From an uncultured Chloroflexia bacterium (GTDB lineage: Bacteria > Chloroflexota > Anaerolineae > Anaerolineales > Anaerolineaceae): 32,000 nucleotides of DNA. The stretch is from the NCBI GenBank assembly GCA_963704755.1, contig OY969938.1, forward strand, positions 2,520,001 to 2,552,000, in the 5' to 3' direction. The translations under genes and the position numbers were made by a program. A model generated the notes under the pieces. It made no database searches and had not been told where the DNA came from. It saw nothing but the letters and a program-made list of their open reading frames with translations. Below, piece by piece: positions 1 to 29,788 of the stretch. Every line of letters begins with the position of its first letter. Within the stretch, counting starts at the first letter, position 1.

Positions 1-87
1 GTCCGATAAACAGGAGGTTCAAATGATCACATTGAAACATACATGCAACCGGTTTGTCACGGCCGGTCCGGAAAGGTAGGCGGGGCT

Positions 88-1251
88 ATGGCAGCCAATT
101 CACCAACCCCATTGACCGCCCAGGAGCAGCGCACGGAACGCGCACGCGAAGCGCTGCGGGCGAACACTTTCCGCATCGCCCCGATAGGTGCGGATACCTG
201 GTCGGTAAAGAACGGCGACAAGGTGCCCTACACCGTCCGGCACGTGGAAAACAACTGGAACTGCACCTGCCCGGATTTCTCCCAATTCGGCCCGTCCATT
301 CGCTGCAAGCACGTCGAAGCGGTGCGCATCATTCAGGAGGAAAACGGTAACAGTGTCCCTACTATTGAGCCACCCATAGGCAACGAGGCCGAAAATGATT
401 CGGCCCGCATCCGCAATGAACTCAACAAACCACTGGATATGGCCCGCGTCAAGCGCCGCCAGGCTCCCGGCAAAGGGACGGTTCCTTACCTGGAAGGGTA
501 CGAGATGATCCAGCGCGCCAACGAGATCTTCGCGTTTGGCTGGTCTTTCGACCTGCTGAAGGATCCCACCATTATCCGCTGGCAAAAGACGCAAACCCAA
601 TACAGCCAACAGCAGCGTTGCAAAGTACCCGTCCTGGACGATCAGGGCCGGCCGCTGCTGGAAGAGGTCGGGATCGTCTGGATCACCGGGAAGGTCACGG
701 TCGAGCTAGACGGCAGGCCGATCTGCCATGCCGACGTAGGGCGCTGCAGCTTCACCGGCGACACCCCCGAGGCGCTCGACATGGCCATCGCCGGCGCTGC
801 TACGGATTGCCTGAAGCGCTGCCTGCGCCAGTTTGGCGACCAGTTTGGCCTGTCCCTTTACGACAGGGACGTGGCCCAGACGGCCGGGTTGGAGCGAGGT
901 AATGGGCATGCGAATAGTCACGCGAGCAGCTCCCCCGGTGGGAATGGCGGTTCCACCGCCCAACCTGCCGGTCGAACGACCCGCCAGACTCCCCCGGCGA
1001 AGTCGTCTGCACCTACGAGCGCTTTCGAAGCGGGTAAAGTGATCTTCACCCTTAAGCCCAAGACTCGCCCCGAGCTGTCCGGAAAAACGCTGGCCGAATT
1101 GCAAAGGCAGGCCCCGGATATCCTGGCCTGGCTGGCCAGCGATTACACCCCCACATCCGAGACTCAGGCGTTGAAAGATGCCGCCCGGCTGTTGGTCCAA
1201 TCCAAAGCCCGGGAGGACAAGGTCATCGCCGATCTTGGTTTCCGCAACTGA
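88..1251 (+). CDS. SWIM zinc-finger / Rad52-family single-strand annealing protein fusion
   Basis: ORF 43..1251. N-terminal CxCx12CxH SWIM signature (NCTCPDFSQFGPSIRCKHVEAV). Rad52/Rad22-like core follows (VPYLEGYEMIQRANEIFAFGWSF ... CLRQFGDQFGLSLYD), then an S/P/G/T-rich linker and a C-terminal helical tail. ATG 88 (MAANSPT) is preferred to ATG 43, but the start is uncertain. Confidence 0.75.
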   Translation: MAANSPTPLTAQEQRTERAREALRANTFRIAPIGADTWSVKNGDKVPYTVRHVENNWNCTCPDFSQFGPSIRCKHVEAVRIIQEENGNSVPTIEPPIGNEAENDSARIRNELNKPLDMARVKRRQAPGKGTVPYLEGYEMIQRANEIFAFGWSFDLLKDPTIIRWQKTQTQYSQQQRCKVPVLDDQGRPLLEEVGIVWITGKVTVELDGRPICHADVGRCSFTGDTPEALDMAIAGAATDCLKRCLRQFGDQFGLSLYDRDVAQTAGLERGNGHANSHASSSPGGNGGSTAQPAGRTTRQTPPAKSSAPTSAFEAGKVIFTLKPKTRPELSGKTLAELQRQAPDILAWLASDYTPTSETQALKDAARLLVQSKAREDKVIADLGFRN

Positions 1252-1277
1252 CTTTTCAACACCCAAAGGAGCAAGAC

Positions 1278-1682
1278 ATGTATCACACGATCATCCTGGC
1301 CGGCAACCTGGGAAATGATCCGGTCATGCGCTATACCCCCAACGGACAGCCGGTGACCACATTTTCTGTGGCGACCAACCGCCAGCACAACCCGGCGGAT
1401 GGCAGCGGGCCGGTTAAAGAAACCACCTGGTTTCGCGTGACTACCTGGGGCAAGCAAGCCGAGGTCTGCAACGAGTACCTGCGCAAGGGTACCAAGATCC
1501 TGGTCGAAGGACGATTGACGCCTGACCCGGAAACGGGTGGGCCGCGCATTTTCAACCGGCAGGACGGGTCGGCCGGCGCTTCTTACGAAGTCACGGCCAC
1601 CACCGTGCGTTTTCTGTCCGCTAAACAGAACGACGAAACCAACAACCCGGCCGCCAATTCCACGGATGACATCCCTTTCTAA
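1278..1682 (+). CDS. ssb: Single-stranded DNA-binding protein
   Basis: OB-fold SSB signature at the N-terminus (MYHTIILAGNLGNDPVMRYTPNGQPVTTFSVATN ... TTWFRVTTWGKQAE). Canonical acidic C-terminal tail ending DDIPF. AAAGGAG RBS lies 7 nt upstream of the ATG. Confidence 0.9.
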   Translation: MYHTIILAGNLGNDPVMRYTPNGQPVTTFSVATNRQHNPADGSGPVKETTWFRVTTWGKQAEVCNEYLRKGTKILVEGRLTPDPETGGPRIFNRQDGSAGASYEVTATTVRFLSAKQNDETNNPAANSTDDIPF

Positions 1683-1732
1683 ATAAACCATTCGCCGGGC
1701 CACCTGAAACGATAGCCGCAAAATACCCCGCG

Positions 1733-1767
1733 GGGGATGCCTTTCCCCTCGACGGGGAAGCATCCCC
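1733..1767 (+). terminator. Imperfect GC-rich stem-loop downstream of ssb (no clear T-tract)
   Basis: GGGGATGCCTTTCCCC-TCGA-CGGGGAAGCATCCCC inverted repeat read directly. It lacks a U-tail, so it may be an attenuator or RNA-stability element rather than a terminator. Confidence 0.35.
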
Positions 1768-1779
1768 TCCAAAAAGGAG

Positions 1780-2283
1780 GTGGATTTGGAAAAACAACTC
1801 TTAACAATACCTGCCGGCCTGGAAACCATTCCACACGTATCCATTGCCGGCTACGAATACCTGGTCGATTTTGGTCAATGCGCCAGACCTCGCTTTCACC
1901 GGGTGGATAAGGAGAAACGCTGCTCGTGTGGCGCCTCTTCCTGCCCGGCCATCGAGGCGGTGCGCGAGTATCTGCTGGGAGGGGGAGCACGTGCGCCAGA
2001 CCCGCTGCCGCCTTGCCCGGTCTGCGGCGCGAAAGTGCTCCGCGACCCGGCCTGGGATGGGCGCTTCACCCACGAGTTGGGCTGGCGCTGCAGCCAGGGC
2101 GGACTGGCCCACTTCCTCCAGCAGAAAATGGAGCGGGTGCGCCAGAACTTACGCGACCACCCCTATCTCCTCCCACCGGCGCCCGGTTATCCGGGGGTAC
2201 GCCGGGACGAGATCCTGGATTACGAAGACCTGATCGAAATCTATAAACAGGCCGCCGAAGAGGGGTATGATCCCACGGCGTGA
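1780..2283 (+). CDS. Hypothetical Cys-rich protein (SWIM-like CxCx4C plus CPVC zinc-ribbon-like motifs)
   Basis: 167-aa ORF with a GTG start (or TTG 6 nt downstream) just after AAGGAGG. Motifs RCSCGASSCPAIEAV and PPCPVCGAKV. Same strand and GC content as its neighbours. No family recognised. Confidence 0.55.
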   Translation: MDLEKQLLTIPAGLETIPHVSIAGYEYLVDFGQCARPRFHRVDKEKRCSCGASSCPAIEAVREYLLGGGARAPDPLPPCPVCGAKVLRDPAWDGRFTHELGWRCSQGGLAHFLQQKMERVRQNLRDHPYLLPPAPGYPGVRRDEILDYEDLIEIYKQAAEEGYDPTA

Positions 2284-2308
2284 CACACATACCACACGAC
2301 CCTGAAGG

Positions 2309-2349
2309 GGACGGAACTTCTCCTTCGGGGGCAGTCCGTCCTCTTTTTT
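2309..2349 (+). terminator. Rho-independent terminator
   Basis: GGACGGA (2309-2315) pairs with TCCGTCC (2335-2341) and is followed by the T-tract CTCTTTTTT. It lies between the stop of ORF 1780..2283 and the start of radC. Confidence 0.7.
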
Positions 2350-2362
2350 GGAGACGGACACC

Positions 2363-3070
2363 ATGGACGAAACGTCCCAAACACAACCGAATTTTCCTTA
2401 CCTGCAACCCAAAGTAAAGCTGCTACCCCTCAAAGAACAACCCGCTTACCGGGTTTCGATCAACGCCGAGACCTGCAACCTGGCCGAACTGCTGGCGGTG
2501 ATCATCGGCGGCAGCGAACAGATCGAGATTGCCGAACGCATGCTGGCCCGCTTCGGCTCGATCCGGCGGCTTTCCCAGGCTCACGTCAACGAAATCGGGG
2601 AGATCAAGGGGGTGGGCGCCGCCACGGCGCTGCGCCTCAAGGCATCCCTGGCGCTGGGCCGGAGGCTCCTGGAACCGGAGGAAGACCGGCCGGTAATTCA
2701 TTCTCCCGGTGATGCTGCCAGGATCCTAATGCCGGTACTGGCTCAGCGCGAGCAAGAGTACATGATCGTGATGCCTCTTGATACCCGTAACCGCATGTTG
2801 GATGTGGTCGAGGTGTACCACGGGAGTTTGAACGCCTCCATGGTCCGCATCGGAGAGCTTCTACGACCGGCCCTACAGCGAAATGCAGCATCGATTGTAG
2901 CTGCCCACAACCACCCTTCCGGTGACCCAACTCCCAGCCCTGAGGACATCAACCTGACTCGCTCGCTCGTACAGGCCGGCAAGTTGATGGACATCGAGTG
3001 CCTGGACCACCTGGTCATCGGCCAGGGACGTTGGGTATCGCTGAAAGAAAAAGGGCTGGGGTTTGGCTAA
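2363..3070 (+). CDS. radC: RadC-like JAB/MPN domain protein
   Basis: C-terminal JAMM-type motif AAHNHPSGDPTPSPEDINLTRSLVQAGKLMDIECLDHLVIG. N-terminal helix-hairpin-helix-like region (SQAHVNEIGEIKGVGAATALRLKA). ATG 2363 (MDETSQ) is preferred over the TTG at 2348. Confidence 0.9.
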   Translation: MDETSQTQPNFPYLQPKVKLLPLKEQPAYRVSINAETCNLAELLAVIIGGSEQIEIAERMLARFGSIRRLSQAHVNEIGEIKGVGAATALRLKASLALGRRLLEPEEDRPVIHSPGDAARILMPVLAQREQEYMIVMPLDTRNRMLDVVEVYHGSLNASMVRIGELLRPALQRNAASIVAAHNHPSGDPTPSPEDINLTRSLVQAGKLMDIECLDHLVIGQGRWVSLKEKGLGFG

Positions 3071-3081
3071 GGGAGGAACTC

Positions 3082-3498
3082 ATGAACGATGCAACGCACG
3101 AAAAACAAAGCCACCTCGAAACGACCTATGAGGCGCTCGTCGAACGGATAAAGGCCCGGGGAAACGATTCCGGCACAGTGCTGGCCGGCGTCACCTGGAG
3201 CCAACTGGCTGAGCTATTGGCCGGCGTCCTTCAGGAGCACGACATCGACCTCGGCGAGCTCGACGAAGAATGCCTGGACGCCTGTCTTCAGCAAGCCTGT
3301 GACGCGCTGCAAAGCCATGAATGCAATCCCTGGGAAGCAATCGCTCGGGCTGCCATGGAAAGCGTGCTTTTCTCAGCCGCTGACCCCGATTACGACGACG
3401 AAGGCCCGCTCACCGAAGCGTACGAGAACTGGACCCGCGCCGAGGACGGCTGGCTGGAAGCTGCCTACGAAGAGCGCTTCGAGCTCGACGATTTTTAA
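3082..3498 (+). CDS. Highly acidic small protein (138 aa), function unknown; candidate DNA mimic / anti-restriction protein
   Basis: ATG 3082 is preceded by GGGAGG. The ORF-track start at 2998 overlaps radC and is unlikely. I count 34 D/E against 7 K/R residues. The C-terminus is ...EAAYEERFELDDF. Confidence 0.65.
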   Translation: MNDATHEKQSHLETTYEALVERIKARGNDSGTVLAGVTWSQLAELLAGVLQEHDIDLGELDEECLDACLQQACDALQSHECNPWEAIARAAMESVLFSAADPDYDDEGPLTEAYENWTRAEDGWLEAAYEERFELDDF

Positions 3499-3563: not shown

Positions 3564-4100
3564 ATGCAAATCGACACAACCCACCTTATCCCCCTCTCGA
3601 TCCCGGTCCCGCCGGACCCACTGTTGGAACAGGCGCTGGGCTACAACCGCCAGGCGCGTTTTTTTGCCACCTGGTGGCAGCCGGAGGGTGACGAAGCCAT
3701 GTTCAGCGACGGTATCGTATCGGGTACCGGTCTATGGATCGGTTACCTGGCCTACGTGCAGCACGACCGGGTCTTCGCCGGGCTGGCTCATTATGACCTG
3801 GGCGGTTCGGACCGCCCGGCCAAACACTGGCTGGTGATCGACCGCCAGGAACGCAAGGCCTACATCGCCTGGCCAGCCGAAGCGCGCGAATTCCTGGCCC
3901 ACCAGTGGCCGCAGCGCGTGGTGTCACTGGATATCCCGGAAATGGAGCAACTGATACAGACCATCAACCGCTGGCTGGCCGAAAACAGCCGAGCAACAGT
4001 TGGCGACGCGCTGGCCTGGATGGAAGTCAACCAGCAGGCGGTCGATGCCTTGCTGGCCTGGCTGAACGAACCGGGCGATAACGGGAGGAGCTCAGCATGA
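3564..4100 (+). CDS. Hypothetical protein (178 aa, Trp-rich)
   Basis: ORF with a GGAG RBS. Its stop overlaps the dnaN start (ATGA overlap at 4097-4100), implying translational coupling. No recognisable motif. Confidence 0.65.
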   Translation: MQIDTTHLIPLSIPVPPDPLLEQALGYNRQARFFATWWQPEGDEAMFSDGIVSGTGLWIGYLAYVQHDRVFAGLAHYDLGGSDRPAKHWLVIDRQERKAYIAWPAEAREFLAHQWPQRVVSLDIPEMEQLIQTINRWLAENSRATVGDALAWMEVNQQAVDALLAWLNEPGDNGRSSA

Positions 4101-5236
4101 CCGACCTGACTCTCGAGAAAGCACCATTGTCGCAGGCGTTGGCGATCGTGACCCGCGTGGTCTCTGCACGGCCCACCCTGCCGGCGCTCGGTACGGTCTT
4201 GCTGAAAAACGAAGAGGGCCGCTTGAGGTTGGCCACAACCAATCTCGAAATCGGCCTTTCGTGCTGGCTGGATGCACAGCAGGATGGCGATTTCTCCATC
4301 GCGCTGCCGGCGCGCACCTTCAGCGACACGGTCAATGCCCTGGATGGCAAAGATACCGTCCAGATCCACGCCAACGGCGAGGGTAAAGTCAGTCTGAAAA
4401 GCGGCGGCGCTCGCACCGTGCTGATCGGCTTGAACGCGGACGAGTTCCCACCTTTGCCCGAAGTTACCGGCCAGGGTAACCTGGCCATAAGCCTGGTCGC
4501 TTCTGAAATGAAGGAAGCCATCCGGCAGGTAGCTTTTGCGGCGTCGATGGACGACGCCCGCCCGATCCTGCAATGCGTGCACGTGGAGTTGGATCAAGAA
4601 ACCCTGCGCCTGGTAGCCAGCGATGGCTTCCGGCTGGCGGTGCGTACACTGCATCTGCCGGAACCGCTGACCCAGCCGGTCCGATTTAACGTCCCGGCGG
4701 CTTCACTTAAAGAGCTGGCCAGGGTTTTACCGGACAGCCAGGAAACCTTTCGGCTCTACTGCCTGAAGAACCGCAACCAACTGGCCTTCCGGTTGGACGA
4801 CGTCGAACTCGTTACCCAGGTGCAGGAAGGTAACTTTCCAGACTACCGGGCGATCATTCCTAAGAGCAGCAAGCTCAAGGCAACGCTGGCCACCCAGGAA
4901 TTGCTCAACGCCTGCAAACAGGTGGAGATCATCGCGCGTGATGGCAACAACATCGCCATGTTCGCCTTTTCAGCCGCTACGGAAGGGAAAGGCAGCCTGG
5001 TCATCTCGGCCCAATCCGAAGAGACCGGGTCGAGCGAGATCGCGGTTCCACTACAGAAGCTGGAGGGGATCGACCTGGGCATTGCATTCAACGTCCGCTT
5101 TGTTAGGGACGTGTTGGAAGCGGTGAAATCCAGGGAAGTGACCTTCGAGGCTAATGCGGATAACACGCCGGCGGTGATCAAGCCGCTTGGCGGAGAGGAG
5201 TACTTGTATGTCGTGATGCCGATGCATAAAGGTTGA
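4097..5236 (+). CDS. dnaN: DNA polymerase III beta sliding clamp
   Basis: 379 aa, typical clamp length. N-terminus L..AL..V.RVVSARPTLPALGTVLLKNEEGRLRLATTNLEIGL. Middle RPILQCVHVELDQETLRLVASDGFRLA. C-terminus ...YLYVVMPMHKG. All are typical of DnaN. Confidence 0.9.
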   Translation: MTDLTLEKAPLSQALAIVTRVVSARPTLPALGTVLLKNEEGRLRLATTNLEIGLSCWLDAQQDGDFSIALPARTFSDTVNALDGKDTVQIHANGEGKVSLKSGGARTVLIGLNADEFPPLPEVTGQGNLAISLVASEMKEAIRQVAFAASMDDARPILQCVHVELDQETLRLVASDGFRLAVRTLHLPEPLTQPVRFNVPAASLKELARVLPDSQETFRLYCLKNRNQLAFRLDDVELVTQVQEGNFPDYRAIIPKSSKLKATLATQELLNACKQVEIIARDGNNIAMFAFSAATEGKGSLVISAQSEETGSSEIAVPLQKLEGIDLGIAFNVRFVRDVLEAVKSREVTFEANADNTPAVIKPLGGEEYLYVVMPMHKG

Positions 5237-5359
5237 CAAGGAGGGAATTTTCCAGAAGGTAAACCGTCTCTTTATATCTTCACACAATCCCTAAATTTTT
5301 GAGTAAACACACTTTCTTGTTTCTCAAAAGAACAAAATTTAAAGGCTTTTCCCATCCTT

Positions 5360-5398
5360 GGCTGTCCAAAAAGCAAATTTCTGATTTTTTGGACAGCC
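5360..5398. terminator. Bidirectional terminator-like hairpin at the left edge of cargo A
   Basis: GGCTGTCCAAAAA (5360-5372) pairs with TTTTTTGGACAGCC (5385-5398). A/T tracts flank both sides. It lies between the convergent dnaN (+) and the 2-TM gene (-). Confidence 0.6.
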
Positions 5399-5594
5399 CT
5401 TTCTGCACTAGCGATACAATTGAATTTACATAGGGGATGCTTGATTTTGAGGCTATTACTAAATATTTTTCTCACGAGTACTAATAAAACCAATTAACCT
5501 TCAAAAAAGTTTCAATCAGTTGATTTGAAAAGCCGGTAAATCCAAGAGTTATATTTTTATTGTGAAGCGATTATGACCATGCGATAAGCATTAA

Positions 5595-6383
5595 TTATTT
5601 ATATATCCAATTTGTAGAAAAATTTCTCTCTGCCAATTTGGAAATATAGGGAGAGAAATCAATTTGAAACCTTGATTCACATTTGGAATTGTCTTGTTGT
5701 GTCAAAACCAAAACCTTCCCTGTTTTGATGGGTTTAATACTTTTTCCAAATAAAACATACCACAAAGCTGGATCACATATTTGTCTTGCAGATACTACTT
5801 CTAAACAGGAAAGTTCTTGTCCTGGCTCAGATTCAATTGTAAAACCAACTTGAGAATCAAGAAAGCCATCTTGAATATCCATTTCAACAATCAGATTGCT
5901 AAGAACCGTTTTATGATCATACTTTCTGTCGAATGAGATATTCAAACATCTTCTTCCGCCAAACGGTATTACATTTATTGCAAAGATCATATTAGGATTA
6001 TCGTTCAAATACACCTTAAAGTTACTTAGTTTTCCCGGCCCTGACATAAGCGGCAATATATAAGTTTGGGAGTCCTTGCTGAAGGATAATGTAAGTGTCT
6101 TAATTAATTTCGCTTCTTTTCCAAGGCGATCAAGTATTATTAATTGGTCTTTGCATTCAAGAATGCCAATTTCGGTTTCTCTTGGCGAGATACTTATCTT
6201 TGTCGTTACAAGAATAACAATTAATACTAAACATGTTGTAGTAATTATTGATATAACCATTAACCAAACAATATCCTTAGAATAGGCTATAAAAAATGTG
6301 ATTGCATTTAAAAGGCCGGAAAATATGGTCAAACTGAAAGGAAAGTAATATTTTAGATTTTCTAAAAACACATCTCTATTCAT
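5595..6383 (-). CDS. Membrane-anchored protein: two N-terminal TM helices plus a soluble domain of about 195 aa of unknown fold
   Basis: 262-aa ORF. Hydrophobic stretches FPFSLTIFSGLLNAITFFIAY and IVWLMVISIITTTCLVLIVILVTT. GGGGGA RBS lies 5 nt upstream of the ATG, and the start is 11 nt after the stop of the 70-aa peptide ORF. Low-GC codon usage matches the rest of the cassette. Confidence 0.7.
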   Translation of the reverse strand: MNRDVFLENLKYYFPFSLTIFSGLLNAITFFIAYSKDIVWLMVISIITTTCLVLIVILVTTKISISPRETEIGILECKDQLIILDRLGKEAKLIKTLTLSFSKDSQTYILPLMSGPGKLSNFKVYLNDNPNMIFAINVIPFGGRRCLNISFDRKYDHKTVLSNLIVEMDIQDGFLDSQVGFTIESEPGQELSCLEVVSARQICDPALWYVLFGKSIKPIKTGKVLVLTQQDNSKCESRFQIDFSPYISKLAERNFSTNWIYK

Positions 6384-6394
6384 GAATCCCCCGC

Positions 6395-6607
6395 TTAAGA
6401 CGACCGATCCATATGACCACTATCTGAATACCAATCAGAGTGATCTGAATGATCCGGATAAGCCCCCTCCTCATTTTTGGTTGTAATTGCAATTTCATCT
6501 AATAGGCTTGAAATGATTTCTTGCAAAGCAGGTTTATTCTCAATGCAAATATCATTAATATCGATAATTGGTGAAGAAATAGTTCCAGATTTATTAAATT
6601 TCAACAT
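6395..6607 (-). CDS. 70-aa acidic peptide with C-terminal HSD-HSD-WYSD-SGH tail; candidate substrate or partner of the adjacent rSAM/SPASM enzyme
   Basis: Its ATG overlaps the last codons and stop of the rSAM gene (ATGTTGA, 6601-6607). The sequence ends ...EEGAYPDHSDHSDWYSDSGHMDRSS. Short ORFs are easy to over-call in AT-rich DNA, so confidence is moderate. Confidence 0.55.
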   Translation of the reverse strand: MLKFNKSGTISSPIIDINDICIENKPALQEIISSLLDEIAITTKNEEGAYPDHSDHSDWYSDSGHMDRSS

Positions 6608-7686
6608 TTTTTACGCCTTTCTAAAGAGAAGCGAATATGATCAAACAACATATAGTACGATCTGCAAAAATAGTCTTTTTCAAAGTTTCCGGAACCGAAA
6701 TATCCCAAATAACTACACCCCCCATGGCAAATAGAGAAATACCTGCAACCCAAACAGGATTGAATTCTATTATACATAATATTTTGAAAGTCAATTAATT
6801 GTTTTGAGCACAAGATTTCTTTTATATTAGCTTCAAACATATTACCCAGAAGTGTTTGGCTTTTACTCCAACGTCCACATATGTAAACATCCCCGGTAGC
6901 ATCGATCGCGAAATGATTAAATCCACAACTTCCAGAGAACTGGCAAAACTTTGGATGCCCAGTGAGCATGGACGAAATTATTGACTTAAAAGGTTCAATG
7001 GAAAACGTAAACTTTTCTAAGCAAATCCACTTATCATACAAACGACATAAGAACGAACCATATTCTTCTGGATCAACCAAAAGGTCCATATATTTTGTGC
7101 CATATCCAAAAATTGGGTTTAGCATTAAATTGAGATTGTTGTCTTTGAAAAAGTCAAAAAAAGAAGTTTCTCTTTTTATTGTTTCTTTAGTACAAACAGC
7201 AAGTATGCCGACTTTGCCGTCTCCTTTCCGTTCTTTAATATCCTTAAAATTCATAATGTTATCCAAAATAATTCTATTTTTTTGCTTGTCTATAGACGAT
7301 TGGGTACTTTGATGAAAAAGGTTTAATTCTTTTGGCCCATCATAACTTATCCCGACACCAAAATTGTTATTGAGAAAGAAATTTATGAACTCATTGTTAA
7401 GTAGAAGAGCATTTGTTTGAATCTTGTTTTGAAAGTTAATACCAGTAAATTGTTTTTGTAAGCAGACTACGTCTTCATAAAATTTTTTGCCCAATAATAA
7501 GGGTTCGCCACCATGCCATGTAAATGAAACTTTTCCCCCCAGCGGAAAATAGTCATTAATTTGTGAAAGCAGAACTTTAACGAAGTCAATATCCATCTTT
7601 TGGGGAGGTTCTCCTCGATTTTCATAACAATAACTACATTGCAAGTTACATGAATTGGTTACTTTGATTATGAAGGAGAGAGACAT
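6601..7686 (-). CDS. Radical SAM enzyme with C-terminal SPASM domain (peptide-modifying / anSME-like class)
   Basis: CX3CX2C cluster motif (VTNSCNLQCSYCYE). SAM-binding GGEPLL (WHGGEPLLLG). SPASM cysteines (CQFSGSCGFNHFAIDATGDVYICGRW ... CLGCRYFSICHGGCSY, i.e. CX2CX5CX3C). Confidence 0.9.
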   Translation of the reverse strand: MSLSFIIKVTNSCNLQCSYCYENRGEPPQKMDIDFVKVLLSQINDYFPLGGKVSFTWHGGEPLLLGKKFYEDVVCLQKQFTGINFQNKIQTNALLLNNEFINFFLNNNFGVGISYDGPKELNLFHQSTQSSIDKQKNRIILDNIMNFKDIKERKGDGKVGILAVCTKETIKRETSFFDFFKDNNLNLMLNPIFGYGTKYMDLLVDPEEYGSFLCRLYDKWICLEKFTFSIEPFKSIISSMLTGHPKFCQFSGSCGFNHFAIDATGDVYICGRWSKSQTLLGNMFEANIKEILCSKQLIDFQNIMYNRIQSCLGCRYFSICHGGCSYLGYFGSGNFEKDYFCRSYYMLFDHIRFSLERRKKC

Positions 7687-7916
7687 CGTTTAATTCTTTT
7701 TTATTCTTCAAAGGATTACATAATAGAATTCCATTATGGTACATGCACACTATCCAATATCCAGAAAATGACACAATATTTCATTTCGTTTTAGGTATTC
7801 CTTATAATACAATGATTATGCAGGGGCTGTTTTTTATAAATTGAGAAAAATTCACAGCCGGGTTAGCGCATATTACCTATTTCCTCAATATAATCCATAG
7901 TCAATATTTTCTTTCA

Positions 7917-9362
7917 TTATCGTGGATCATTAACCCTTAGATTTTCAATAAAGTGTAAGGTGTTTCCGCCTATGATGTTGAATTCAACATATTGCCCAAC
8001 CAAATTTCTACAACGGTTCCCTAAATAGCGCTTTGTCACTTCAGGCTGAACGCTGAAAACGGGTGATGTAATTTCTAGCAAGTAATTTCCATCGGATAAT
8101 TTCTCACCTTTGTTAGTAAATCCATTTGATGTAAATGCCCCATCACTTATATGCACGCTATCTTGTGCAAAATATCCTGTTTCTAGATTTCTTAAAGAAA
8201 GCATTAGTAATGTTTCGGGTGGCATATTACCCACCCCCCGGATGATCAACATATCGTCGTCGAAATAGTGTGCGATGTTCATCGTCGCATTTATTTCCCG
8301 CCCCTCTTCGGGCAACATCATTTCCATATCAGGCGGTAATGGCAATATTTCACCCATTCTGACAGGATTACCGTCATAATACCATCTACCATTTTTTTCC
8401 GTAAAACCTATACCTATTAAGTGTTCTAACCCCATAACGCATAATTGTTCATCAGAAAAATTGGAATACCTAGAGGCTTGGATAATTGTATATCCACGAT
8501 AAACCTCAAGCAATGGAATATTGAAGTACTCAGATACCCGAATAAAAACTAATGCTTCTGCAATATTGGCCTCAAATTCCCCTTCATAATCATCCCAAAT
8601 ACTTTCTGCATAATCATAGATGACTTGAGGGGTTATTCCTTCAATTGAAAAGCTGTGCCGTGGTTCAACAAAATAAAAATCCCCAAGTAGAGCAGAAAGC
8701 TCCCAAGTAAGTTGTCTCCCGTTTGATTTTTCCTGAACATAATACCTAACCATCTTAAAAACATCCTCAATCTTTACACCTTCAGAAGGCAAAAACCTTA
8801 TCAATGCCTCGGCGAAAAAACTGTTTTCTCCTATGCCATCCGTGGCTGTTGATCCAGGGCTCGTTGAATAGGAAATAAACGTTCCCCTTGGGACACTTAC
8901 CGGTAATAAACCCGTTGTAATAATACCTCGGGTGACTCCCAAAGATATGTTAGTTCTACATGCATCGAGGATAACAATATTAGTCTTATCTCCATAGTTT
9001 GCCATCCAATTTAATATACCAGATAACCCAACAGACTCTAATATAATTCTCTCCTGATTGGTATTACTTGCATCAATGGGGATCAAGTAATTCTGGCCAT
9101 GAAATTCAACGCCATGCCCTGCAAAATAGAATAAGCCGACATCAAAACCATTTAATTCTTGACCAAAATCGTATACACATTGTGACAAATCTGCATAGTT
9201 CAAATTGGGAAAAGGCCTGACCATGAAACCAATATTTTCAAGAACAGTAGAAATACCAAGTACATCATTGGCCGGGTTTTGTAATTGCCCCCAATTTTGA
9301 TAATTGTTGTTTCCAACTAGATATGCTAATCTTGTCACTCTTTGCCATCCTTGATTGAGCAT
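7917..9362 (-). CDS. Caspase-like (peptidase C14 / orthocaspase) protease with a C-terminal domain of about 240 aa of unknown function
   Basis: The catalytic His-Cys dyad is in canonical context: LFYFAGHGVEF and TNIVILDACRTN. The N-terminus AYLVGNNNY...L.NP.NDV is typical of C14 domains. Residues from about 240 to 481 have no motif I recognise. Confidence 0.85.
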   Translation of the reverse strand: MLNQGWQRVTRLAYLVGNNNYQNWGQLQNPANDVLGISTVLENIGFMVRPFPNLNYADLSQCVYDFGQELNGFDVGLFYFAGHGVEFHGQNYLIPIDASNTNQERIILESVGLSGILNWMANYGDKTNIVILDACRTNISLGVTRGIITTGLLPVSVPRGTFISYSTSPGSTATDGIGENSFFAEALIRFLPSEGVKIEDVFKMVRYYVQEKSNGRQLTWELSALLGDFYFVEPRHSFSIEGITPQVIYDYAESIWDDYEGEFEANIAEALVFIRVSEYFNIPLLEVYRGYTIIQASRYSNFSDEQLCVMGLEHLIGIGFTEKNGRWYYDGNPVRMGEILPLPPDMEMMLPEEGREINATMNIAHYFDDDMLIIRGVGNMPPETLLMLSLRNLETGYFAQDSVHISDGAFTSNGFTNKGEKLSDGNYLLEITSPVFSVQPEVTKRYLGNRCRNLVGQYVEFNIIGGNTLHFIENLRVNDPR

Positions 9363-9734
9363 GAATAATTCAAATTACCTCGGTAGCTTGCTTATCAGAA
9401 TAAATATGCATTAAGAAATCTTCACCTAAACCGTGTAATAGGCAACCATCCAAATTTAACAAGATTTTCATAAATTTGATAGGGGCTAATCAATTCTTGT
9501 CGTTCTTCTTTTGAATAACAATTCGGATTGTTCATTGTATTACTCTAGAATGCTGTATCTGCTATGTGCTTCATTCCCCCTGCCTGTGAAGACTTGGAAA
9601 TTTTTTGACTATTCCACAAAAAGTTATGAATCTCCAATATCTATTTTACAGGAAAAAGAATATTTGCACATAGAAAAGCATACATTGGAGTTTTGTTCAA
9701 ACCATCGTTAGTGGTTGATCGAATACAAGACATA

Positions 9735-9838
9735 GGAGGATTGACATACTACCATACAAAGACGCCTACCTGCACCAGCAAGTAGGCACAGTGATTCAAC
9801 TGCAAAAGCAGGGCAAAATCTTCATTGGCGCCTACCAA
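9735..9838 (+). pseudogene. Relic of the 5' end (RBS plus first ~31 codons) of a diverged homologue of gene X (11575..12627); start codon destroyed
   Basis: By hand alignment, 104 nt align to 11565-11668 with 14 mismatches. GGAGGATT..ACATACTACCATACAAAGACGCCTACCTG matches GGAGGATT..ACATGCAACCATACGAAGACGCCTACCTG, so ATG has become ATA. Confidence 0.8.
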
Positions 9839-9842
9839 AAGG

Positions 9843-9998
9843 ATTGCTTTCAACGTCCGCTTTGTGAGGGATGTGTTGGAAGCGGTGAAGTCCAGGGAAG
9901 TGACCTTCGAGGCCAATGCGGATAACACGCCGGCGGTGATTAAGCCGCTCGGCAGAGAGGAGTATTTGTATGTCGTAATGCCGATGCATCAAGGATGA
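9843..9998 (+). pseudogene. Relic of the 3' end (last 51 codons plus stop) of a diverged dnaN homologue
   Basis: By hand alignment, 156 nt align to 5081-5236 with 12 mismatches. Ten are synonymous third-position changes in the dnaN frame and two are non-synonymous (G->R, K->Q). The fragment has no 5' part and is out of frame with the preceding X fragment. Confidence 0.85.
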
Positions 9999-10003
9999 AA
10001 AAT

Positions 10004-10238: not shown

Positions 10239-11204
10239 TTAAATCTCTTTGCTTAAAGTATCTTTCTGAATTGCTACCTTTTCCATCTCTTGGCTTATTG
10301 TAGAAATAAACGTACTGTACGAATCTAAACTGTTATAAGCAAGGGTATATTGTTGAACAAGGCTTGCTAGATGTTTCCTAGCTTCGTCCGCCTTTCTTGC
10401 GTGCTTGGATTCTTCGTACCTATCACGGTTTTCTCGCCACTCATATTCCTGTCGACGCAGATAATCTGTTACATCGTCATATTCTTGCCAGGTATGCACG
10501 AAAGTGATGAGGTTTATTTCATCCCCCAAAATATTACGGATACTTTGCTCTTCATCTGATGGACAACAAATGACCCTTATGTCTTTATGACTGAAAATCA
10601 ATCCATCTGGATTTGTATATCGCCATTCTCGCTCCCACATGAAACCCTGCGAGGGGTGATTTTCTAGCAAAGGATAAAGAAGGGGATATATGGCAACAAG
10701 AGTATTAACTACTTTTGAATTAATATCCTCTTCGGGGGAAATAATAAGGCCATCATTATTTACTCGATGGATAAGATAATGGATGCTTTTTAATATATCG
10801 TCTTGCACATAAACTACTGGACGCGTTCCTATAGCAACCATTGCGCTTTTATCAAATCCTATTCCAAAACTTTGATTTGCTTTCCACCGTTCAATATTTC
10901 GATAACGAAAGAAATCCAGTGCAAAGGTTGGAGACTCGCTGAAGCAAACCACTTTTGCGTCAAATGTTCCACTCGAGTTGTACTCAGGGATGTTTGCCTG
11001 TAAATAACCATATCCTTCGGGAATTTCTGTAGTTGTACCTTTTCCTTGTAAAATGCTCCTTATTGCATTTTCGCCCGTCATATGAATAAGAAATGGAGAC
11101 ATATCAGGCTTTTCGATTGGTGTAAGTTGAAATGTAGGAGTATCAATTTTGTAATTTTTACTCCATTCAGACCAGCTAATTTGCCTTGATGTCGGTAATG
11201 GCAT
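10239..11204 (-). CDS. Abi-like (abortive-infection family-like) protein with C-terminal coiled-coil
   Basis: Motif series FLIHMTG ... VVCFSESP ... FGIGFDK ... RPVVYV ... GFMWEREWRY. From memory this resembles AbiGi-type and related Abi families. The C-terminal ~80 aa are charged and heptad-like. ATG 11204 (MPLPTS) is preferred; the ORF track starts at a TTG at 11240. Confidence 0.6.
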   Translation of the reverse strand: MPLPTSRQISWSEWSKNYKIDTPTFQLTPIEKPDMSPFLIHMTGENAIRSILQGKGTTTEIPEGYGYLQANIPEYNSSGTFDAKVVCFSESPTFALDFFRYRNIERWKANQSFGIGFDKSAMVAIGTRPVVYVQDDILKSIHYLIHRVNNDGLIISPEEDINSKVVNTLVAIYPLLYPLLENHPSQGFMWEREWRYTNPDGLIFSHKDIRVICCPSDEEQSIRNILGDEINLITFVHTWQEYDDVTDYLRRQEYEWRENRDRYEESKHARKADEARKHLASLVQQYTLAYNSLDSYSTFISTISQEMEKVAIQKDTLSKEI

Positions 11205-11574
11205 ATTTTTCCCTTTGTTATCGGTGAAGCAACCTTGCAATTAATTATACCGACTTCTGCTACTAGTTTGTCAGCCATGCTTTGATAAGTGAAAATCGCG
11301 CTTTTACTCCTGAAAACCGGGAATACTACTTATTAAAGCATGATTGACAGTCTACTACATAGCAGCCAAACAATATTTAAGGGCTGCTTGTGCAATAACC
11401 GGAATTCTAGCTGGGTATGTTCTAAAAAGCGTACCTAAACAGGCGGATTTCTATTCCTTGTTTTTTGGAAACCTGATTGAAAGAAACGGAGATACTATCC
11501 GATTCTACGAAACCTGGGTTAGCTTATGAACCTTGGAAAAATTTCAACGTAGTAAGTATCTATGGAGGATTCAC

Positions 11575-12627
11575 ATGCAACCATACGAAGACGCCTACCT
11601 GCGCCAGCGGGTAGGCGCCGTAATTCAACTGCAAAAGCAGGGTAAGATCGTCATTGCCGCCTACCAAGACGGCACCGGCCTGCCTACCCGGCAGGACTTG
11701 CCCAACCTCAGACCATCCGCCCACCCGCACGACTACGCGGTAGGCGATGCCGGCTACCTGGACTACGATGGCCAGGTCGGCGCGTTCATCTTCACCCCCA
11801 GGCCCGGCGCAGACTTACCCAAGGCGCTGGCTCATTACCAGGAGCTTTCCCTGGCAGAAGCGGTCGTGAACGTGGCGGCCCGGCAGGCGACCATTCAGGT
11901 GAACGACACGGAAATTACCTTCTCCGGCGTCCCGGCCTGGGAGCCGGGTCATACCCTGCTCAAGGAGCTCAACGAAGAACTGGCCCGGACCAACTCAGGA
12001 GTGATCGTCTGGAAGCTCACCTGGGACGAAAAAGGTATGGACTGGCAAGAGCGGCTCTTTCAAGGAGCGGCGCCCAGGCTGCGTAACGGTCAGGCGCTGG
12101 TCCACCTGAGCGGCTACGCCTATGATGAGGATCACGCCCTGGTGTATACCGGCGCGGTGGGGTACAAGACCAGCCTGGAGAGCATCCGGGCCACGCTCCT
12201 GACTGCCAAGCCGCTCACCCTGGCGCACGACGGCCAAGATGTTTTCCTGTCTGTGCTGGACCGCTACGAACAGGCCTGGCAGGCGCTGCCGGAATACACC
12301 AGTCACCACGCGGCTTTCATTGCACGCCAGGCACTGCCCGGCAAGTGGGATCCGCAGGATCCATTCGCTTACCTGCTGGTCTTTCGTTCCGCTGCCGGCG
12401 CGGAGGGGGAAATGCTGCGCCTGTTCGCCGAGCGGCTGAAAGAGACCCTGGAAATCCCGGTCCTGGACCGTTGGGCGCCGGAACTGTGGAATGCGGCCAG
12501 AGAACAAAGCGCCATCCACAACCTGGTGACCGCCGGCGACTGCCTGGCCGGCTGCCGCATCAGCCTGCAAGCCGACTGGCTAGGCCTGATCACCGAGCTA
12601 CTAAAACAGGAAGCGATTACGCTGTAA
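11575..12627 (+). CDS. Hypothetical protein X (350 aa), right flank of the cargo hotspot
   Basis: ATG 11575 is preceded by GGAGG. G+C content jumps sharply at this point. No motif recognised. The track start at 11533 is a TTG lying in AT-rich DNA. Confidence 0.75.
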   Translation: MQPYEDAYLRQRVGAVIQLQKQGKIVIAAYQDGTGLPTRQDLPNLRPSAHPHDYAVGDAGYLDYDGQVGAFIFTPRPGADLPKALAHYQELSLAEAVVNVAARQATIQVNDTEITFSGVPAWEPGHTLLKELNEELARTNSGVIVWKLTWDEKGMDWQERLFQGAAPRLRNGQALVHLSGYAYDEDHALVYTGAVGYKTSLESIRATLLTAKPLTLAHDGQDVFLSVLDRYEQAWQALPEYTSHHAAFIARQALPGKWDPQDPFAYLLVFRSAAGAEGEMLRLFAERLKETLEIPVLDRWAPELWNAAREQSAIHNLVTAGDCLAGCRISLQADWLGLITELLKQEAITL

Positions 12628-15700: not shown

Positions 15701-16068
15701 CGGTCTATGAAGGCACCATGGAAGCCCGCGCTCTATCGTTAATGGGGGCAAAAATGAAGGCTGCGCAGTTACTGTATGGAGATGAGGTCGGCGGAGCGAT
15801 CGTCCCGCAAGAAGACGGCGATCTGTTGACCGAGTTGGCCCGCGAGGTGCTCAACGGAGCAGACCTGCCCGACCTGCAAACCCTGTTCGCCGACGAGATG
15901 AAGGTCAGCAATAACCCACTGGGCAGCCTGACCACACCCAGTGCAACCATCCTGCCTTGCGAGAAGGTACTGACCTGGTCGGATTGGATGGCGGAGAGGG
16001 CTGTGGTGATGAGGAAGAAATCCAGGAAGGAGGTAGTTCCGGAGGGTCAGATGGGATTCGGTATATAA
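12754..16068 (+). CDS. N6-adenine DNA methyltransferase / SNF2-family helicase fusion with a Cys-rich insertion (DarB-like or conjugative-element anti-restriction-like architecture)
   Basis: MTase motif I LLDPCAGEGKA and motif IV FLNPPYE. Helicase Walker A AEMGVGKTT, motif II ADECHEFKG, motif VI QAVRRVWRLGQ. Cys cluster ACTCPACGAVIY...RRFCRA...RRPCNT lies between motifs I and II. ATG 12754 (MRPPAIEKMGYYPTP) follows AAGGAGA. Confidence 0.9.
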   Translation: MRPPAIEKMGYYPTPNTVLELLKTCVAPGEVRGRLLDPCAGEGKAAGILGRAFNCLTWGAELSPGRAEKASQVMDRVYNTAWQACGLNDETITVLFLNPPYETDRFDSHKRLEYDFLKSTTTKLVRGGLLIYIIPQKVLGLVEVARLLTNHYECLQAARFPDGEYEAFKQVVVLAYRRKVYRIASDEEILAIQSLATQDLPVLQAQPEPLYHLSAAPERGSNGKPALFKRNDWEPEEVVEATRGCGVQQTKEWLDLLNPGRGTAELTRPVMPLKRGHIAMLIASGMMGTVKLADEKGRPMLIKGRVVKVVEKVGEHDDGETVTETYRDRFVTTVAVLKKSGIETIQDVKGLAEFMRANGDKIAAHVLEAYRPLYNLDPTSAEMAILDHLGNGRKALPGQSEPGLLPAQRHAAAAVARCIRRNRVANIQAEMGVGKTTIACGTIELLNAYPALVLCPPHLVPKWIRELEEVIPGVQARELRRIGKTGDATTDVNDVDRFLADWHSGRLGSKAVAVMANTSAKIGSGWEPAVVTRKVRDVLTGQIVSACTCPACGAVIYDDEGLPLTGPAELATKRRFCRARVPGWELDAVGSLQRDDQGNPTWGRRPCNTPLFRFGGARRWSLAEYIAKHAKGAFKLLVADECHEFKGKSSDRGIAFHQLVTSCRATLTLTGTFFGGRSTSIFWLLHRLNYGVRRDFAYHDEKRWARLYGVLETQRSRRRSDEEDEDGVYTGNRRYRNQAKEQPGVSPAIVNRLLDTTVFLSLKDLGLALPDYKEEVSALTMLEEQGQQYRQMDGSLKALALQSNRYLSTWLQWSLARPNSAFRDEAVIVDELDRKGRLVRTVPLMELPAINPDSHKWLPKESWLANFCRTEKLQNRKVLVYVRQTGKRDIQDHLLEALEGNGLRATVLSGNVDPRKREEWIAKRAGRLDVLICNAELVKTGLDLIQFSSVVFYEITYSLYTLWQAVRRVWRLGQIHPVRAVFSVYEGTMEARALSLMGAKMKAAQLLYGDEVGGAIVPQEDGDLLTELAREVLNGADLPDLQTLFADEMKVSNNPLGSLTTPSATILPCEKVLTWSDWMAERAVVMRKKSRKEVVPEGQMGFGI

Positions 16069-16074
16069 TTAGCT

Positions 16075-16108
16075 TTGGCTCCGAGAAATTCTCGGAGCCA
16101 ATTTTTTT
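16075..16108 (+). terminator. Rho-independent terminator
   Basis: TTGGCTCCGAG-AAATT-CTCGGAGCCAA, a perfect 11-bp stem followed by TTTTTTT, 7 nt after the MTase-helicase stop. It also marks the switch from GC-rich to AT-rich DNA. Confidence 0.85.
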
Positions 16109-16219
16109 GTCACCGAATTGTTTTTCAGCGAGCAAATGCACATGGCTTGATGAGCAAAATTATCGCATCTTTCTCTACAAATAGCGGGCTAGCAAATCGG
16201 GTAAGATGAAGCTTCCATA

Positions 16220-16248
16220 TTGCTATTAATATATTCTCGACTTCTAAT
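16220..16248 (+). promoter_or_regulatory. Possible sigma70-type promoter for the HTH gene
   Basis: TTGCTA, 17 nt spacer, TCTAAT, located about 65 nt upstream of ATG 16312. This is a pattern match only. Confidence 0.25.
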
Positions 16249-16311
16249 GCACATAATTCGTCCCGCAAGGCTCAATCCTGGATGTCATAATCTGTTCCAA
16301 TAGGGACAATA

Positions 16312-16656
16312 ATGACACAGGAAAATGCCCAATGTTTCATCCAATGGCTGGACAAACAACTGGCGGATAATCGCTTAAACGATCATCAGTTAGCTCAAAA
16401 GGCGGGGATTTCACATTCGGTGATCAGCAAAGCCCGAAAAGGGATTTTGCCCAAGTGGGATGCCTGTGTTTCTATTGCACGGGCTTTAAACGTCGACCCT
16501 ATACAAATTTTCCGTATTGCAGGTTTACTCCAAAATCCGCCAGAATTGGATCCCAATTTCGAAGCGTTGAAATTTTCTTATGGTAAGTTATCACCAAAGT
16601 TTCAAAAAATAGTGATTCGTATAATTCAGATGCTCTCAGAAGAAACCTCCGATTAG
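16312..16656 (+). CDS. XRE/cI-type helix-turn-helix transcriptional regulator
   Basis: HTH_3-like core LNDHQLAQKAGISHSVISKARKGILPKWDACVSIARALNVDPIQIF. AGGGA RBS. Confidence 0.8.
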   Translation: MTQENAQCFIQWLDKQLADNRLNDHQLAQKAGISHSVISKARKGILPKWDACVSIARALNVDPIQIFRIAGLLQNPPELDPNFEALKFSYGKLSPKFQKIVIRIIQMLSEETSD

Positions 16657-16735
16657 ATCCTTTTTATCACCGCTAATTTCGGTCAGGAAAACGCTTCGAA
16701 ATAGATATACCCAATAAATAATCCAATAGGTGCAA

Positions 16736-16778
16736 ATTGCGGAAATCCGCAATAAGCTCGGAAATACAGCGGATTCCC
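16736..16778. promoter_or_regulatory. Operator-like palindromes with recurring GCGGA(A/T)T half-sites
   Basis: Perfect palindrome ATTGCGGA-AA-TCCGCAAT (16736-16753). It overlaps a second inverted repeat GGAAATCCGC ... GCGGATTCCC (16741-16750 and 16769-16778). ATGCGGAAAATG follows downstream. The sites lie between the HTH and response-regulator genes. Confidence 0.3.
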
Positions 16779-16948
16779 GAAGAATTCATGCGGAAAATGT
16801 CAGTATTCAACAAGTTTGGTTAGGTCTATACTTGCCAAAACAAACCAATAAATTACCAAACATAGTCTAAACATATTTCCTCTATCGCAGGGAAAGGGCA
16901 ATCAGAAAACAGCCGTTCCCTGAATAAATACTTTAAGAAAGGTGCTTT

Positions 16949-17593
16949 TTGGATTCGACCGTGCGAACAAATATCTTACTTGTCGACAATCATCCCCTTA
17001 TCTTAATCGGAATCCGATACCAACTTACTTCTTTTCCTGAATTTAATATCGTAGGAGAAGGTATTTCCCGCGAAGAAGTTCTACAAAAGGTCAATGAACT
17101 CGATGTCGATCTTGTAATAATTGGCCTCAATTTGCCCGGTGTCAATATCATTGACCTGATTAAAACAATCAAATGTATTCATCCGAGAATAAAAATTGTT
17201 ATTCTTTCTGCTTGTCGAGATCGAAGCACAATTATTGGATTGTTTACCGCTGGCATTGATGGTTATGTACTAAAAGATGAAGAAGCGGGTAATTTAGTAG
17301 ATGCCATCCATGCTGTACAAAATGGAAAAGATTGGCTGAGTCCAAGCATTGCTTCGCTTATTTTGGGGCGTTTCAAAAATGCTCGCACAAACCCAGGTTC
17401 AAATCAACTAACTGAAAAGGAACAACAACTGATCCACTTCTTTGCGGAAGGATTGACCACAATTGAAATATCTAGCCACATGAATTTGTCAGTTCGAGCT
17501 GTCGAAATGAGAATCACAAACCTCTACAAAAAAATTGGTTTGCGATCGCGGGCCAGTGTTGTTTATTGGGCCAAAGAAAATGGGATTCTTTAG
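16949..17593 (+). CDS. NarL/FixJ-family response regulator (REC plus LuxR-type HTH) with a degenerate receiver
   Basis: The REC fold is readable (ILLVDNHPLILIGI ... KIVILSAC ... GIDGYVLKD). The LuxR HTH is LTEKEQQLIHFFAEGLTTIEISSHMNLSVRAVEMRITNLYKKIGL. The expected phospho-acceptor context ..DLNMPG reads IIGLNLPG. The start is TTG 16949 or GTG 16961. Confidence 0.85.
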   Translation: MDSTVRTNILLVDNHPLILIGIRYQLTSFPEFNIVGEGISREEVLQKVNELDVDLVIIGLNLPGVNIIDLIKTIKCIHPRIKIVILSACRDRSTIIGLFTAGIDGYVLKDEEAGNLVDAIHAVQNGKDWLSPSIASLILGRFKNARTNPGSNQLTEKEQQLIHFFAEGLTTIEISSHMNLSVRAVEMRITNLYKKIGLRSRASVVYWAKENGIL

Positions 17594-20744: not shown

Positions 20745-20779
20745 CACTTTCAAATTGTTGTTTGTTAGGTTCAGTTTGG

Positions 20780-28061: not shown

Positions 28062-28070
28062 GAGCCCCTC

Positions 28071-29102: not shown

Positions 29103-29105
29103 GGG

Positions 29106-29777: not shown

Positions 29778-29788
29778 TCCGCCGGTGT

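Follow-up and report, generated by a model that had tools for sequence, protein, structure and literature searches.

A low-GC block in a mobile element of an uncultured Anaerolineaceae bacterium: a probable triceptide-type radical SAM cassette beside an independently moving caspase-like gene

Triceptides are peptides made on the ribosome and modified after translation (RiPPs), and they are defined by Ω1-X2-X3 motifs, in which a radical S-adenosylmethionine (rSAM) enzyme with a SPASM domain links the aromatic ring of residue 1 to the Cβ of residue 3 (PMC11499958). The characterised Tyr-x-Asp enzyme YxdB (WP_226048651.1) joins Tyr-C3 to Asp-Cβ, and OscB joins Trp-C7 to the Cβ of Asn or Asp; dynobactin, whose maturase is called DynE in the same paper and DynA in NCBIfam, has an unfused three-residue ring that contains His (PMC11002830). 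In characterised triceptides, the cleavage site lies immediately in front of the first ring, in many cases following a Pro (PMC12912966). Here we analyse a stretch of 32,000 nt from an uncultured Anaerolineaceae bacterium (contig OY969938.1, positions 2,520,001 to 2,552,000), referred to as the window, whose numbering is used for all coordinates unless a comparison locus is named. A low-GC block at 5237-9734 carries four genes, which code for a caspase-like protease, an rSAM/SPASM enzyme, a 70-residue peptide and a protein with two transmembrane segments (2-TM protein). Our results indicate that the block probably holds two independent cargo units side by side, a mobile triceptide-type RiPP cassette (unit 1, 5595-7686) and the caspase-like gene (unit 2, 7917-9362).

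A preliminary description of the same DNA had read the four genes as one system. What it said of the architecture is borne out: the four minus-strand open reading frames (ORFs), the drop in GC content, the gene overlaps and the hotspot relic all lie where it had put them, the protease belongs to family C14 and has an intact His/Cys dyad, the rSAM enzyme has a full SPASM domain, the last three genes form one unit, and the location is a mobile-element cargo hotspot near a CRISPR-Cas locus. Its statement that the gene set is without precedent among described RiPP systems was too strong, since SPASM rSAM enzymes that form aromatic-x-Asp cyclophanes have been described (YxdB, OscB; PMC11002830), and its inclusion of the caspase in a four-gene system finds no support in the other genomes compared, as set out below. 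Comparison loci fetched from other genomes and metagenomes are given L-numbers, and comparison proteins P-numbers.

The radical SAM enzyme and its Asp-rich peptide

The enzyme of unit 1 contains a Radical_SAM domain (44.7 bits, Pfam cut-off 29.5) and a SPASM domain (37.0 bits, cut-off 21.5), and the Cys residues of its CX3CX2C motif (C13/C17/C20), together with eight Cys residues of the SPASM region, are invariant in the four closest relatives. It has no N-terminal RiPP recognition element (RRE) domain, and in this it resembles the triceptide maturases YxdB and OscB/GrrM, which are also rSAM/SPASM enzymes that lack an RRE domain. The best NCBIfam match is to DynA (NF041298), over the full length, with a score of 222.7 that is half of the cut-off of 450, followed by the anaerobic sulfatase-maturating enzymes (anSME, TIGR03942), with 202.3 against 349.45. 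The cyclophane models give GrrM/OscB 114.8 (cut-off 310), YhhB 113.6 (445), AmcB 97.8 (425), FxsB 86.2 (370) and XyeB 80.6 (450), which leaves the enzyme below every curated cut-off for three-residue cyclophane-forming enzymes; TIGR04083 and DarW are also related over the full length, again below cut-off. The nearest solved structures are those of anSME (4K36-39) and of the triceptide synthase ChlB (9GM3). The enzyme is rare, given that its best matches besides itself among 5.8 billion proteins are only 36-37% identical, and a genome scan with its alignment returned mostly anSME-like genes of gut Bacteroidota, with a single informative locus (L011).

Two familiar identities were considered for this enzyme and rejected. 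Viperins lack a SPASM domain, which the window enzyme has, and the viperin models match only the generic rSAM core, at residues 7-122 or 8-167 (NF038283, 47 bits against a cut-off of 180; PADLOC pVip, E = 2.7e-14), so that assignment to pVip is not supported. An ordinary sulfatase maturase, a placement that had been raised in the preliminary description, is rejected on the strength of the sub-threshold anSME score and of a dedicated peptide partner conserved beside the enzyme. The anSME proteins do share the fold class with two auxiliary clusters and include the best solved relative, but a Pfam scan of 25 window ORFs turned up no sulfatase domain, nor is there any (C/S)-x-(P/A)-x-R sulfatase motif in the 70-residue peptide.

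The start codon of the peptide gene lies within AAATGTTGA, where it overlaps the rSAM stop, and a Shine-Dalgarno-like GAAAGG stands upstream; the peptide is thus translationally coupled to the enzyme. Its leader contains NKPALQEIISSLL, and its core, which begins at …EGAYPD, reads YPD-HSD-HSD-W-YSD-SG-HMD-RSS, with five aromatic-x-Asp triplets in 21 acidic residues. These triplets match the Ω1-X2-X3 signature of the triceptides, for which links to Asp-Cβ are documented in YxdB and OscB. As in triceptide loci, the precursor would stand next to its maturase and consist of a leader followed, at the C-terminus, by a core of Ω1-X2-X3 repeats, with a precedent for Asp at position 3. Unlike in those loci, the window gene is on the downstream side of the maturase gene, with translational coupling between the two, and its core combines His, Tyr and Trp with Asp, in five triplets that stand back to back. 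Compared with dynobactin and darobactin, whose maturases are DynA and DarE, the acidic, Asp-rich core is unrelated, and it gives no evidence of BamA-targeting features.

A small gene lies directly downstream of every one of the best rSAM relatives (36-37% identity), and the encoded peptides read …GGYYPHSDSNHHDYNQYQAYSDHCEHHDYGD in L001, …GWDDYKYPDYFDHFDSPSW in L008 and …FTDWREDLQDYDDYYTDWLDW in L009/L010. In L011, from a Woesearchaeota metagenome-assembled genome, two tandem aromatic-x-Asp precursor genes follow one rSAM gene (7016-7598). A metagenome scan added a peptide with …NGWSDNAHSDYGWSEHSDFYSDRY (L095) and many more aromatic-x-Asp peptides, encoded upstream or downstream of an rSAM gene; besides L095, examples are L116, L097, L114, L113/115/117/125, L111, L110/126 and L127. 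Across 11 aligned peptides the leader keeps the element I-x-x-P-x-L-(R/Q)-E-(I/V/M)-(I/V/L). Most members of the family are from uncultured archaea and bacteria of low GC content, many of them on archaeal or candidate-phylum contigs, and none of the precursor peptides is matched by an NCBIfam or Pfam model.

Of the small ORFs that adjoin an rSAM gene on its own strand, 22 of 643 have at least three aromatic-x-Asp motifs, against 39 of 10,218 small ORFs at other places in these loci, an enrichment of about 9-fold. Such an ORF adjoins the rSAM gene in all six loci that score highest with the rSAM profile, and in 10 of the top 11; since the window itself and the duplicate pairs L001/L002 and L009/L010 are among the six, these represent four distinct loci. 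Judged by its coupling, its leader and its core, the 70-residue peptide looks like a RiPP precursor.

Among the family members, position 2 of the triplets can be S, T, G, P, H, F, V, I or L, with the aromatic residue and the Asp kept. Such a pattern is consistent with residues 1 and 3 being joined, and it speaks against an anSME-type oxidation of Ser. This bears on the possibility that the enzyme performs other chemistry on the same peptide, either conversion of Ser to formylglycine in H-S-D and Y-S-D or the formation of C-O or C-N links as in DarE and DynA. Ser is the commonest middle residue in the window core, anSME is the second-best family and provides the best solved structure, and the best match, DynA, belongs to the maturase of dynobactin, a peptide with C-N and C-C links (PMC11002830). 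Given that the family does not conserve the middle residue, that the anSME score (202) is below its cut-off (349), and that sulfatase motif and sulfatase domain are missing from the peptide and from the scanned ORFs, we consider such chemistry unlikely.

Two side observations concern related enzymes. Downstream of the rSAM genes of L103 and L106 lies another peptide family (1228-1431 and 1674-1874), with the conserved C-terminus …(D)DxxYANVYKYAFF, probably another uncharacterised family of cyclophane precursors. In L163, three more rSAM-like genes (63-3290) precede the pair of rSAM and peptide genes, which suggests a more elaborate pathway there.

The membrane protein and the conserved three-gene unit

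The 2-TM gene starts 11 nt after the peptide stop, with GGGGGA upstream as a purine-rich motif of Shine-Dalgarno type. The predicted model of its product (pLDDT 86, pTM 0.74) shows two long helices that make up a transmembrane hairpin (residues ~3-34 and 38-65); the remainder, about 190 residues (72-261), is an all-β sandwich. For the β-domain, Foldseek gives only a weak and generic likeness, to sandwiches of the ribophorin type and to the β-domain at the N-terminus of M1 aminopeptidases (TM-scores 0.37-0.47). A word-seeded search found only the protein itself; its status as an ORFan was rejected when an exhaustive phmmer search of 1.84 billion representatives recovered 15 distant full-length homologues, at 21-35% identity, whose genomic contexts were obtained by exact look-up of the matches. 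No member of this family has a match in Pfam, NCBIfam, PADLOC or the PDB sequences, and a metagenome scan with the family alignment returned nothing. The 2-TM protein therefore belongs to an undescribed family. Summed across the family, the N-terminal segment holds 32 Lys and Arg residues, the loop 10 and the stretch of 15 residues after the second transmembrane segment 37. This distribution suggests that both termini, and hence the β-sandwich, face the cytoplasm, which is probably the topology of the protein.

In L093/L094, where the 2-TM homologue is P0186, the genes for the rSAM/SPASM enzyme, a 70-residue peptide (…LLWSDYSAHSNWGQQG and …KLIIERILNQIADKKQDLLWSDYSAHSNWGQQG) and the 2-TM protein follow one another in the order of the window. 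The cassette of L093 (6400-8800) is an island of GC 0.34-0.42 in DNA of GC 0.55-0.65, flanked by a gene for a GH114 glycosidase and an operon for a phosphate-type ABC transporter; this island is independent evidence for horizontal mobility of the three-gene unit. In L175, the gene for the closest rSAM enzyme (45% identity over 233 residues) is directly followed by that for P0199 (~35%), which shares a 90%-identity cluster with P0184, the 2-TM homologue nearest to the window protein (35%); exactly where a peptide gene would be expected, after the rSAM stop and before the 2-TM start, the scaffold has a gap (719-797, ATGA-N10-TAA). A gene for a HEAT-repeat protein comes after the cassette in L175. 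The order is permuted in L118, with a peptide (…NYSDWSDYDAWDRGGD), a distant 2-TM member (hhalign probability 91%) and then the rSAM gene, and in L092 the 2-TM gene (P0185) overlaps the start of a gene for an AmcB-like cyclophane rSAM enzyme. Taken together, the rSAM enzyme, the peptide and the 2-TM protein form a conserved unit, of which the neighbours in other genomes (glycosidase, ABC transporter, HEAT-repeat protein, tRNA synthetase) are ordinary genes and not defence islands.

The window cassette also differs from the triceptide systems in that it has no protease or exporter gene, its hairpin-anchored β-sandwich protein being encoded in that gene position, and in that it is mobile-element cargo. 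A different product stands in the same position in L095, where a protein of 194 residues with a hydrophobic N-terminal segment (1624-2208) is encoded after the precursor. It was tried as a 2-TM homologue and rejected, as no homology is detectable, and it may be an analogous accessory.

The most likely reading of unit 1, drawn from the comparison of sequences, is that its product is a ribosomal peptide with triceptide-like cross-links, accompanied by a membrane-anchored partner protein that is undescribed. The precursor of 70 residues would be made in translational coupling with the rSAM/SPASM enzyme, which would recognise the conserved leader helix …P-x-L-Q/R-E-I/V…, a step suggested, like the class assignment, by conservation among relatives. 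The enzyme would then take a hydrogen from the Cβ of the Asp at triplet position 3 and join this carbon to the aromatic ring at position 1. The core could gain up to five three-residue cyclophanes in this way, with 2 Da lost per ring. The 2-TM β-sandwich protein would handle the product at the inner face of the membrane, its likeliest roles being self-protection, delivery or retention of the peptide, or hand-over to an exporter of the host.

The cassette might instead be a compact intracellular system of the mobile element and not an exported antibiotic pathway, with a cross-linked His/Asp-rich peptide that acts on or through the membrane-tethered β-sandwich protein. Possible roles would be in addiction, in exclusion, as a defence switch or as a metal-handling device. 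We regard this as a low-probability alternative; if true, it would make the cassette a new functional class of RiPP-based mobile-element cargo.

The caspase-like gene and its separate history

The protease of unit 2 matches Peptidase_C14 in Pfam with 110.8 bits (cut-off 21.4, E = 1e-31), and its dyad, His83 (in AGHG) and Cys135 (in DACR), is invariant in 11 homologues. In the predicted model, the N-terminal domain has a MALT1/caspase-like fold according to the structure search, and the C-terminal domain (CTD, ~240 residues) is a helical bundle plus a β-sandwich. A structure search with the whole model found matches to the caspase domain only and nothing informative for the CTD, which matches no Pfam family either. 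A tblastn search with the CTD recovered one plasmid caspase plus a partial match resembling surface-adhesin E. The latter is a weak match of the β-sandwich part (window 7917-8645; 33.7% identity over ~80 residues) to a Polaromonas plasmid gene whose annotation is surface-adhesin E family protein. Relatives of the caspase domain were also present in a scan of viral contigs, all of them without the CTD.

The protein shares the intact dyad and the MALT1-like fold with the bacterial C14 proteases of orthocaspase and paracaspase type. It differs from them in its CTD, and it is not linked to partners of the gasdermin, type III CRISPR, EACC1 or CHAT type; its score with the EACC1-associated caspase model (NF047832) is 44.1, below the cut-off of 140.

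Full-length homologues with the same CTD, at 41-63% identity, occur in four other contexts, and none of the four (L004/L005, L003, L006/L007, L176) has an rSAM gene nearby. In L004/L005, the 63%-identical caspase is the sole gene between dnaN and a gene for a 358-residue protein, in the same orientation as in the window; compared with L004, the window gains 2.7 kb (5237-7916) between the caspase stop and the dnaN stop. In L003 (5854-8852), the caspase gene follows a DUF3800 gene beside a relic of the 3' end of a helicase gene, with a LanC-like gene near, and this relic marks another hotspot of the same element family. The caspase gene, being found in the dnaN hotspot (L004) and in the helicase-relic hotspot (L003), thus moves between hotspots of one element family. 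In L006/L007, it lies upstream of genes for a Dcm methylase and an NgoBV-type restriction enzyme, and a more distant homologue follows parA on a Clostridium plasmid (L176), where a peptidase-ABC exporter with HlyD is encoded within a few kb. The caspase with its CTD is therefore a single-gene cargo that moves alone, between element hotspots and other accessory islands. It may be a new single-gene defence protein, for which it is an uncharacterised candidate.

These contexts bear on the idea that the block encodes a single RiPP pathway of four genes, with the caspase-fold protease as the enzyme that cuts off the leader. Its appeal is that the genes are co-oriented, 230 nt apart and with no clear terminator between them, that the cassette has no protease of its own and known triceptides are cleaved just before the first cyclophane (PMC12912966), and that RiPP or bacteriocin-type genes lie a few kb from two of the caspases (the LanC-like gene of L003; the peptidase-ABC exporter with HlyD of L176). 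Yet no rSAM gene accompanies the caspase in its four other contexts, the caspase sits alone in the same hotspot in L004/L005, and a caspase-family hidden Markov model (HMM) scan found no caspase beside any rSAM gene in ~165 fetched rSAM loci, nor in any of the five loci with the 2-TM family. The two units also differ slightly in GC content (0.385 against 0.32-0.34). We consider such a four-gene pathway quite improbable. Of the mobile RiPP cluster proposed in the preliminary description, the precursor, the rSAM maturase and the membrane protein fit, and the caspase as leader peptidase does not.

The mobile-element setting and what it means

The block has a GC content of 0.30-0.39, against 0.58-0.64 in the flanking backbone. 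Individual cargo genes have GC 0.32-0.385, and 0.25-0.33 at third codon positions (GC3), compared with 0.59 and a GC3 of 0.74 for dnaN. The four genes of the block all lie on the minus strand (Table 1).

Table 1. Features of the cargo block and its borders (window coordinates).
Feature	Position	Strand	Remarks
dnaN	4097..5236	+	mobile-element backbone; left hotspot border
AT-rich spacer, dnaN stop to cassette 3' end	5237..5594		GC 0.335
2-TM protein	6383->5595	-	262 aa
Putative precursor peptide	6607->6395	-	70 aa
rSAM/SPASM enzyme	7686->6601	-	361 aa
Spacer, caspase stop to rSAM start	7687..7916		230 nt, GC 0.30; likely junction of the two cargo units
Caspase-like protein	9362->7917	-	481 aa
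Hotspot-junction relic	9735..10001	+	copied 5' end of the 364-aa gene joined to copied 3' end of dnaN
AbiGi-like gene	10239..11240	-	second cargo, in duplicated hotspot copy; from Pfam and PADLOC scores

The AT-rich spacer next to dnaN contains no recognised gene; an ORF of 73 codons (5272-5493) has no Pfam match, and there is no Rfam or tRNA match in it. Scans of the block for Rfam families and tRNAs, and for promoters and terminators, found nothing that delimits transcription units, and the promoter and terminator scan gave no convincing match in the spacer between the two cargo units.

Self-BLAST of the window shows how the right border of the block arose. Positions 9735-9838 are an 86.5% identical copy of 11564-11667, the 5' end of the gene for a 364-residue protein, and 9843-10001 are a 91.8% identical copy of 5081-5239, the 3' end of dnaN. 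Because the relic copies both ends, the junction of dnaN with the 364-residue gene has been tandemly duplicated, and each copy holds its own cargo. A duplicated junction with differing low-GC cargo is the signature of a cargo-collecting recombination hotspot, and it looks like what remains after two variants of the element, with different cargo, recombined. The second cargo gene scores 19.1 bits with the AbiGi model of Pfam (gathering cut-off 22.4), and E = 4.6e-5 with that of PADLOC.

The backbone that carries the block is an integrative mobile element, with genes in the order Rad52-like recombinase, RadC, dnaN, cargo, 364-residue protein, DUF6094 methyltransferase-helicase, LuxR-type regulator and large serine recombinase. 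The order Rad52-like, SSB, RadC, dnaN, cargo, 358-residue protein and DUF6094-helicase is common to the window and L004/L005, and the scan of viral contigs found no relative of dnaN. In the sister element L004, a DruA (Druantia) gene (7-1239) lies beyond the DUF6094 helicase.

Two more low-GC blocks (0.36-0.44) occur in the element of the window, at 16000-17500, with the LuxR-type response regulator (16949-17593) inside it, and at 19500-21000; the large serine recombinase (17879-19681) lies between them. These blocks are probably further cargo and the end of the element. A type I-C CRISPR-Cas locus with its array follows the element, at 20787-31989. Here, at 20787-27605 and 28071-31989, the cas genes (Cas1, Cas4, Cas7, Csd1/Cas8c) adjoin a very long array of ~100 units of 67 nt each, with the repeat GTTTCAATCCACGCTCCCCGTGTGGGGAGCGAC.

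Such a neighbourhood invites the other proposal of the preliminary description, an anti-phage or abortive-infection module in which the protease, the modified peptide or both control a membrane effector. The hotspot itself, the AbiGi-like neighbour and the nearby CRISPR-Cas locus would suit it, as would the restriction-modification pair beside a caspase homologue in L006 and the DruA gene that the caspase-bearing element L004 also has, beyond the 358-residue gene and the helicase; the membrane protein might, in principle, form a pore or disrupt membranes. We nevertheless regard a defence module as very unlikely, given that the sole PADLOC match in the block is the generic rSAM core to pVip (residues 7-122), that the three-gene cassette lies elsewhere among ordinary genes, outside defence islands, and that the peptide has every hallmark of a RiPP precursor.

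Several points weigh against the reading of unit 1 as a triceptide-type cassette independent of its neighbour. The cassette encodes neither a protease nor an exporter, and most aromatic-x-Asp loci do not have the 2-TM family, for which reason the 2-TM protein is better seen as a recurrent accessory than as a core component. The proposed chemistry draws on precedent in known triceptides, and the enzyme lies below the cut-off of every curated NCBIfam family model, which tells against membership of the named cyclophane families. The shared orientation, the 230 nt and the lack of a clear terminator also count here, in that the two units may be co-transcribed or the cassette may have recruited the caspase locally. 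Moreover, the cassette may be simply a new member of the YxdB/triceptide class.

The independence of the caspase gene in other genomes, the conservation of the other three genes and the pattern of the peptide family nevertheless favour two units. What was proposed as a four-gene system is two cargo units that stand together in a hotspot by chance. Adjacency within a hotspot does not make a system, and comparison with the sister element split what seemed a four-gene operon into two. The pair of enzyme and peptide appears, on comparative grounds, to be of an already known kind, the triceptide-type RiPP; new here are an rSAM clade that is not covered by the curated models, an undescribed 2-TM family and a compact, low-GC mobile island.

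The cassette belongs to a rare and uncurated branch of what are probably cyclophane-forming RiPPs, whose precursors are strings of His/Tyr/Trp-x-Asp triplets. The predicted product would carry up to five small rings, fused in series, in an acidic core of 21 residues. The 2-TM β-sandwich protein recurs with different cyclophane rSAM enzymes, and in two unrelated genomes of high GC content the cassette of 2.3 kb stands out as a discrete low-GC island, which in one of them lies within the recombination hotspot of an integrative element. This distribution indicates that RiPP cassettes of this kind move as plug-in cargo alongside defence genes.

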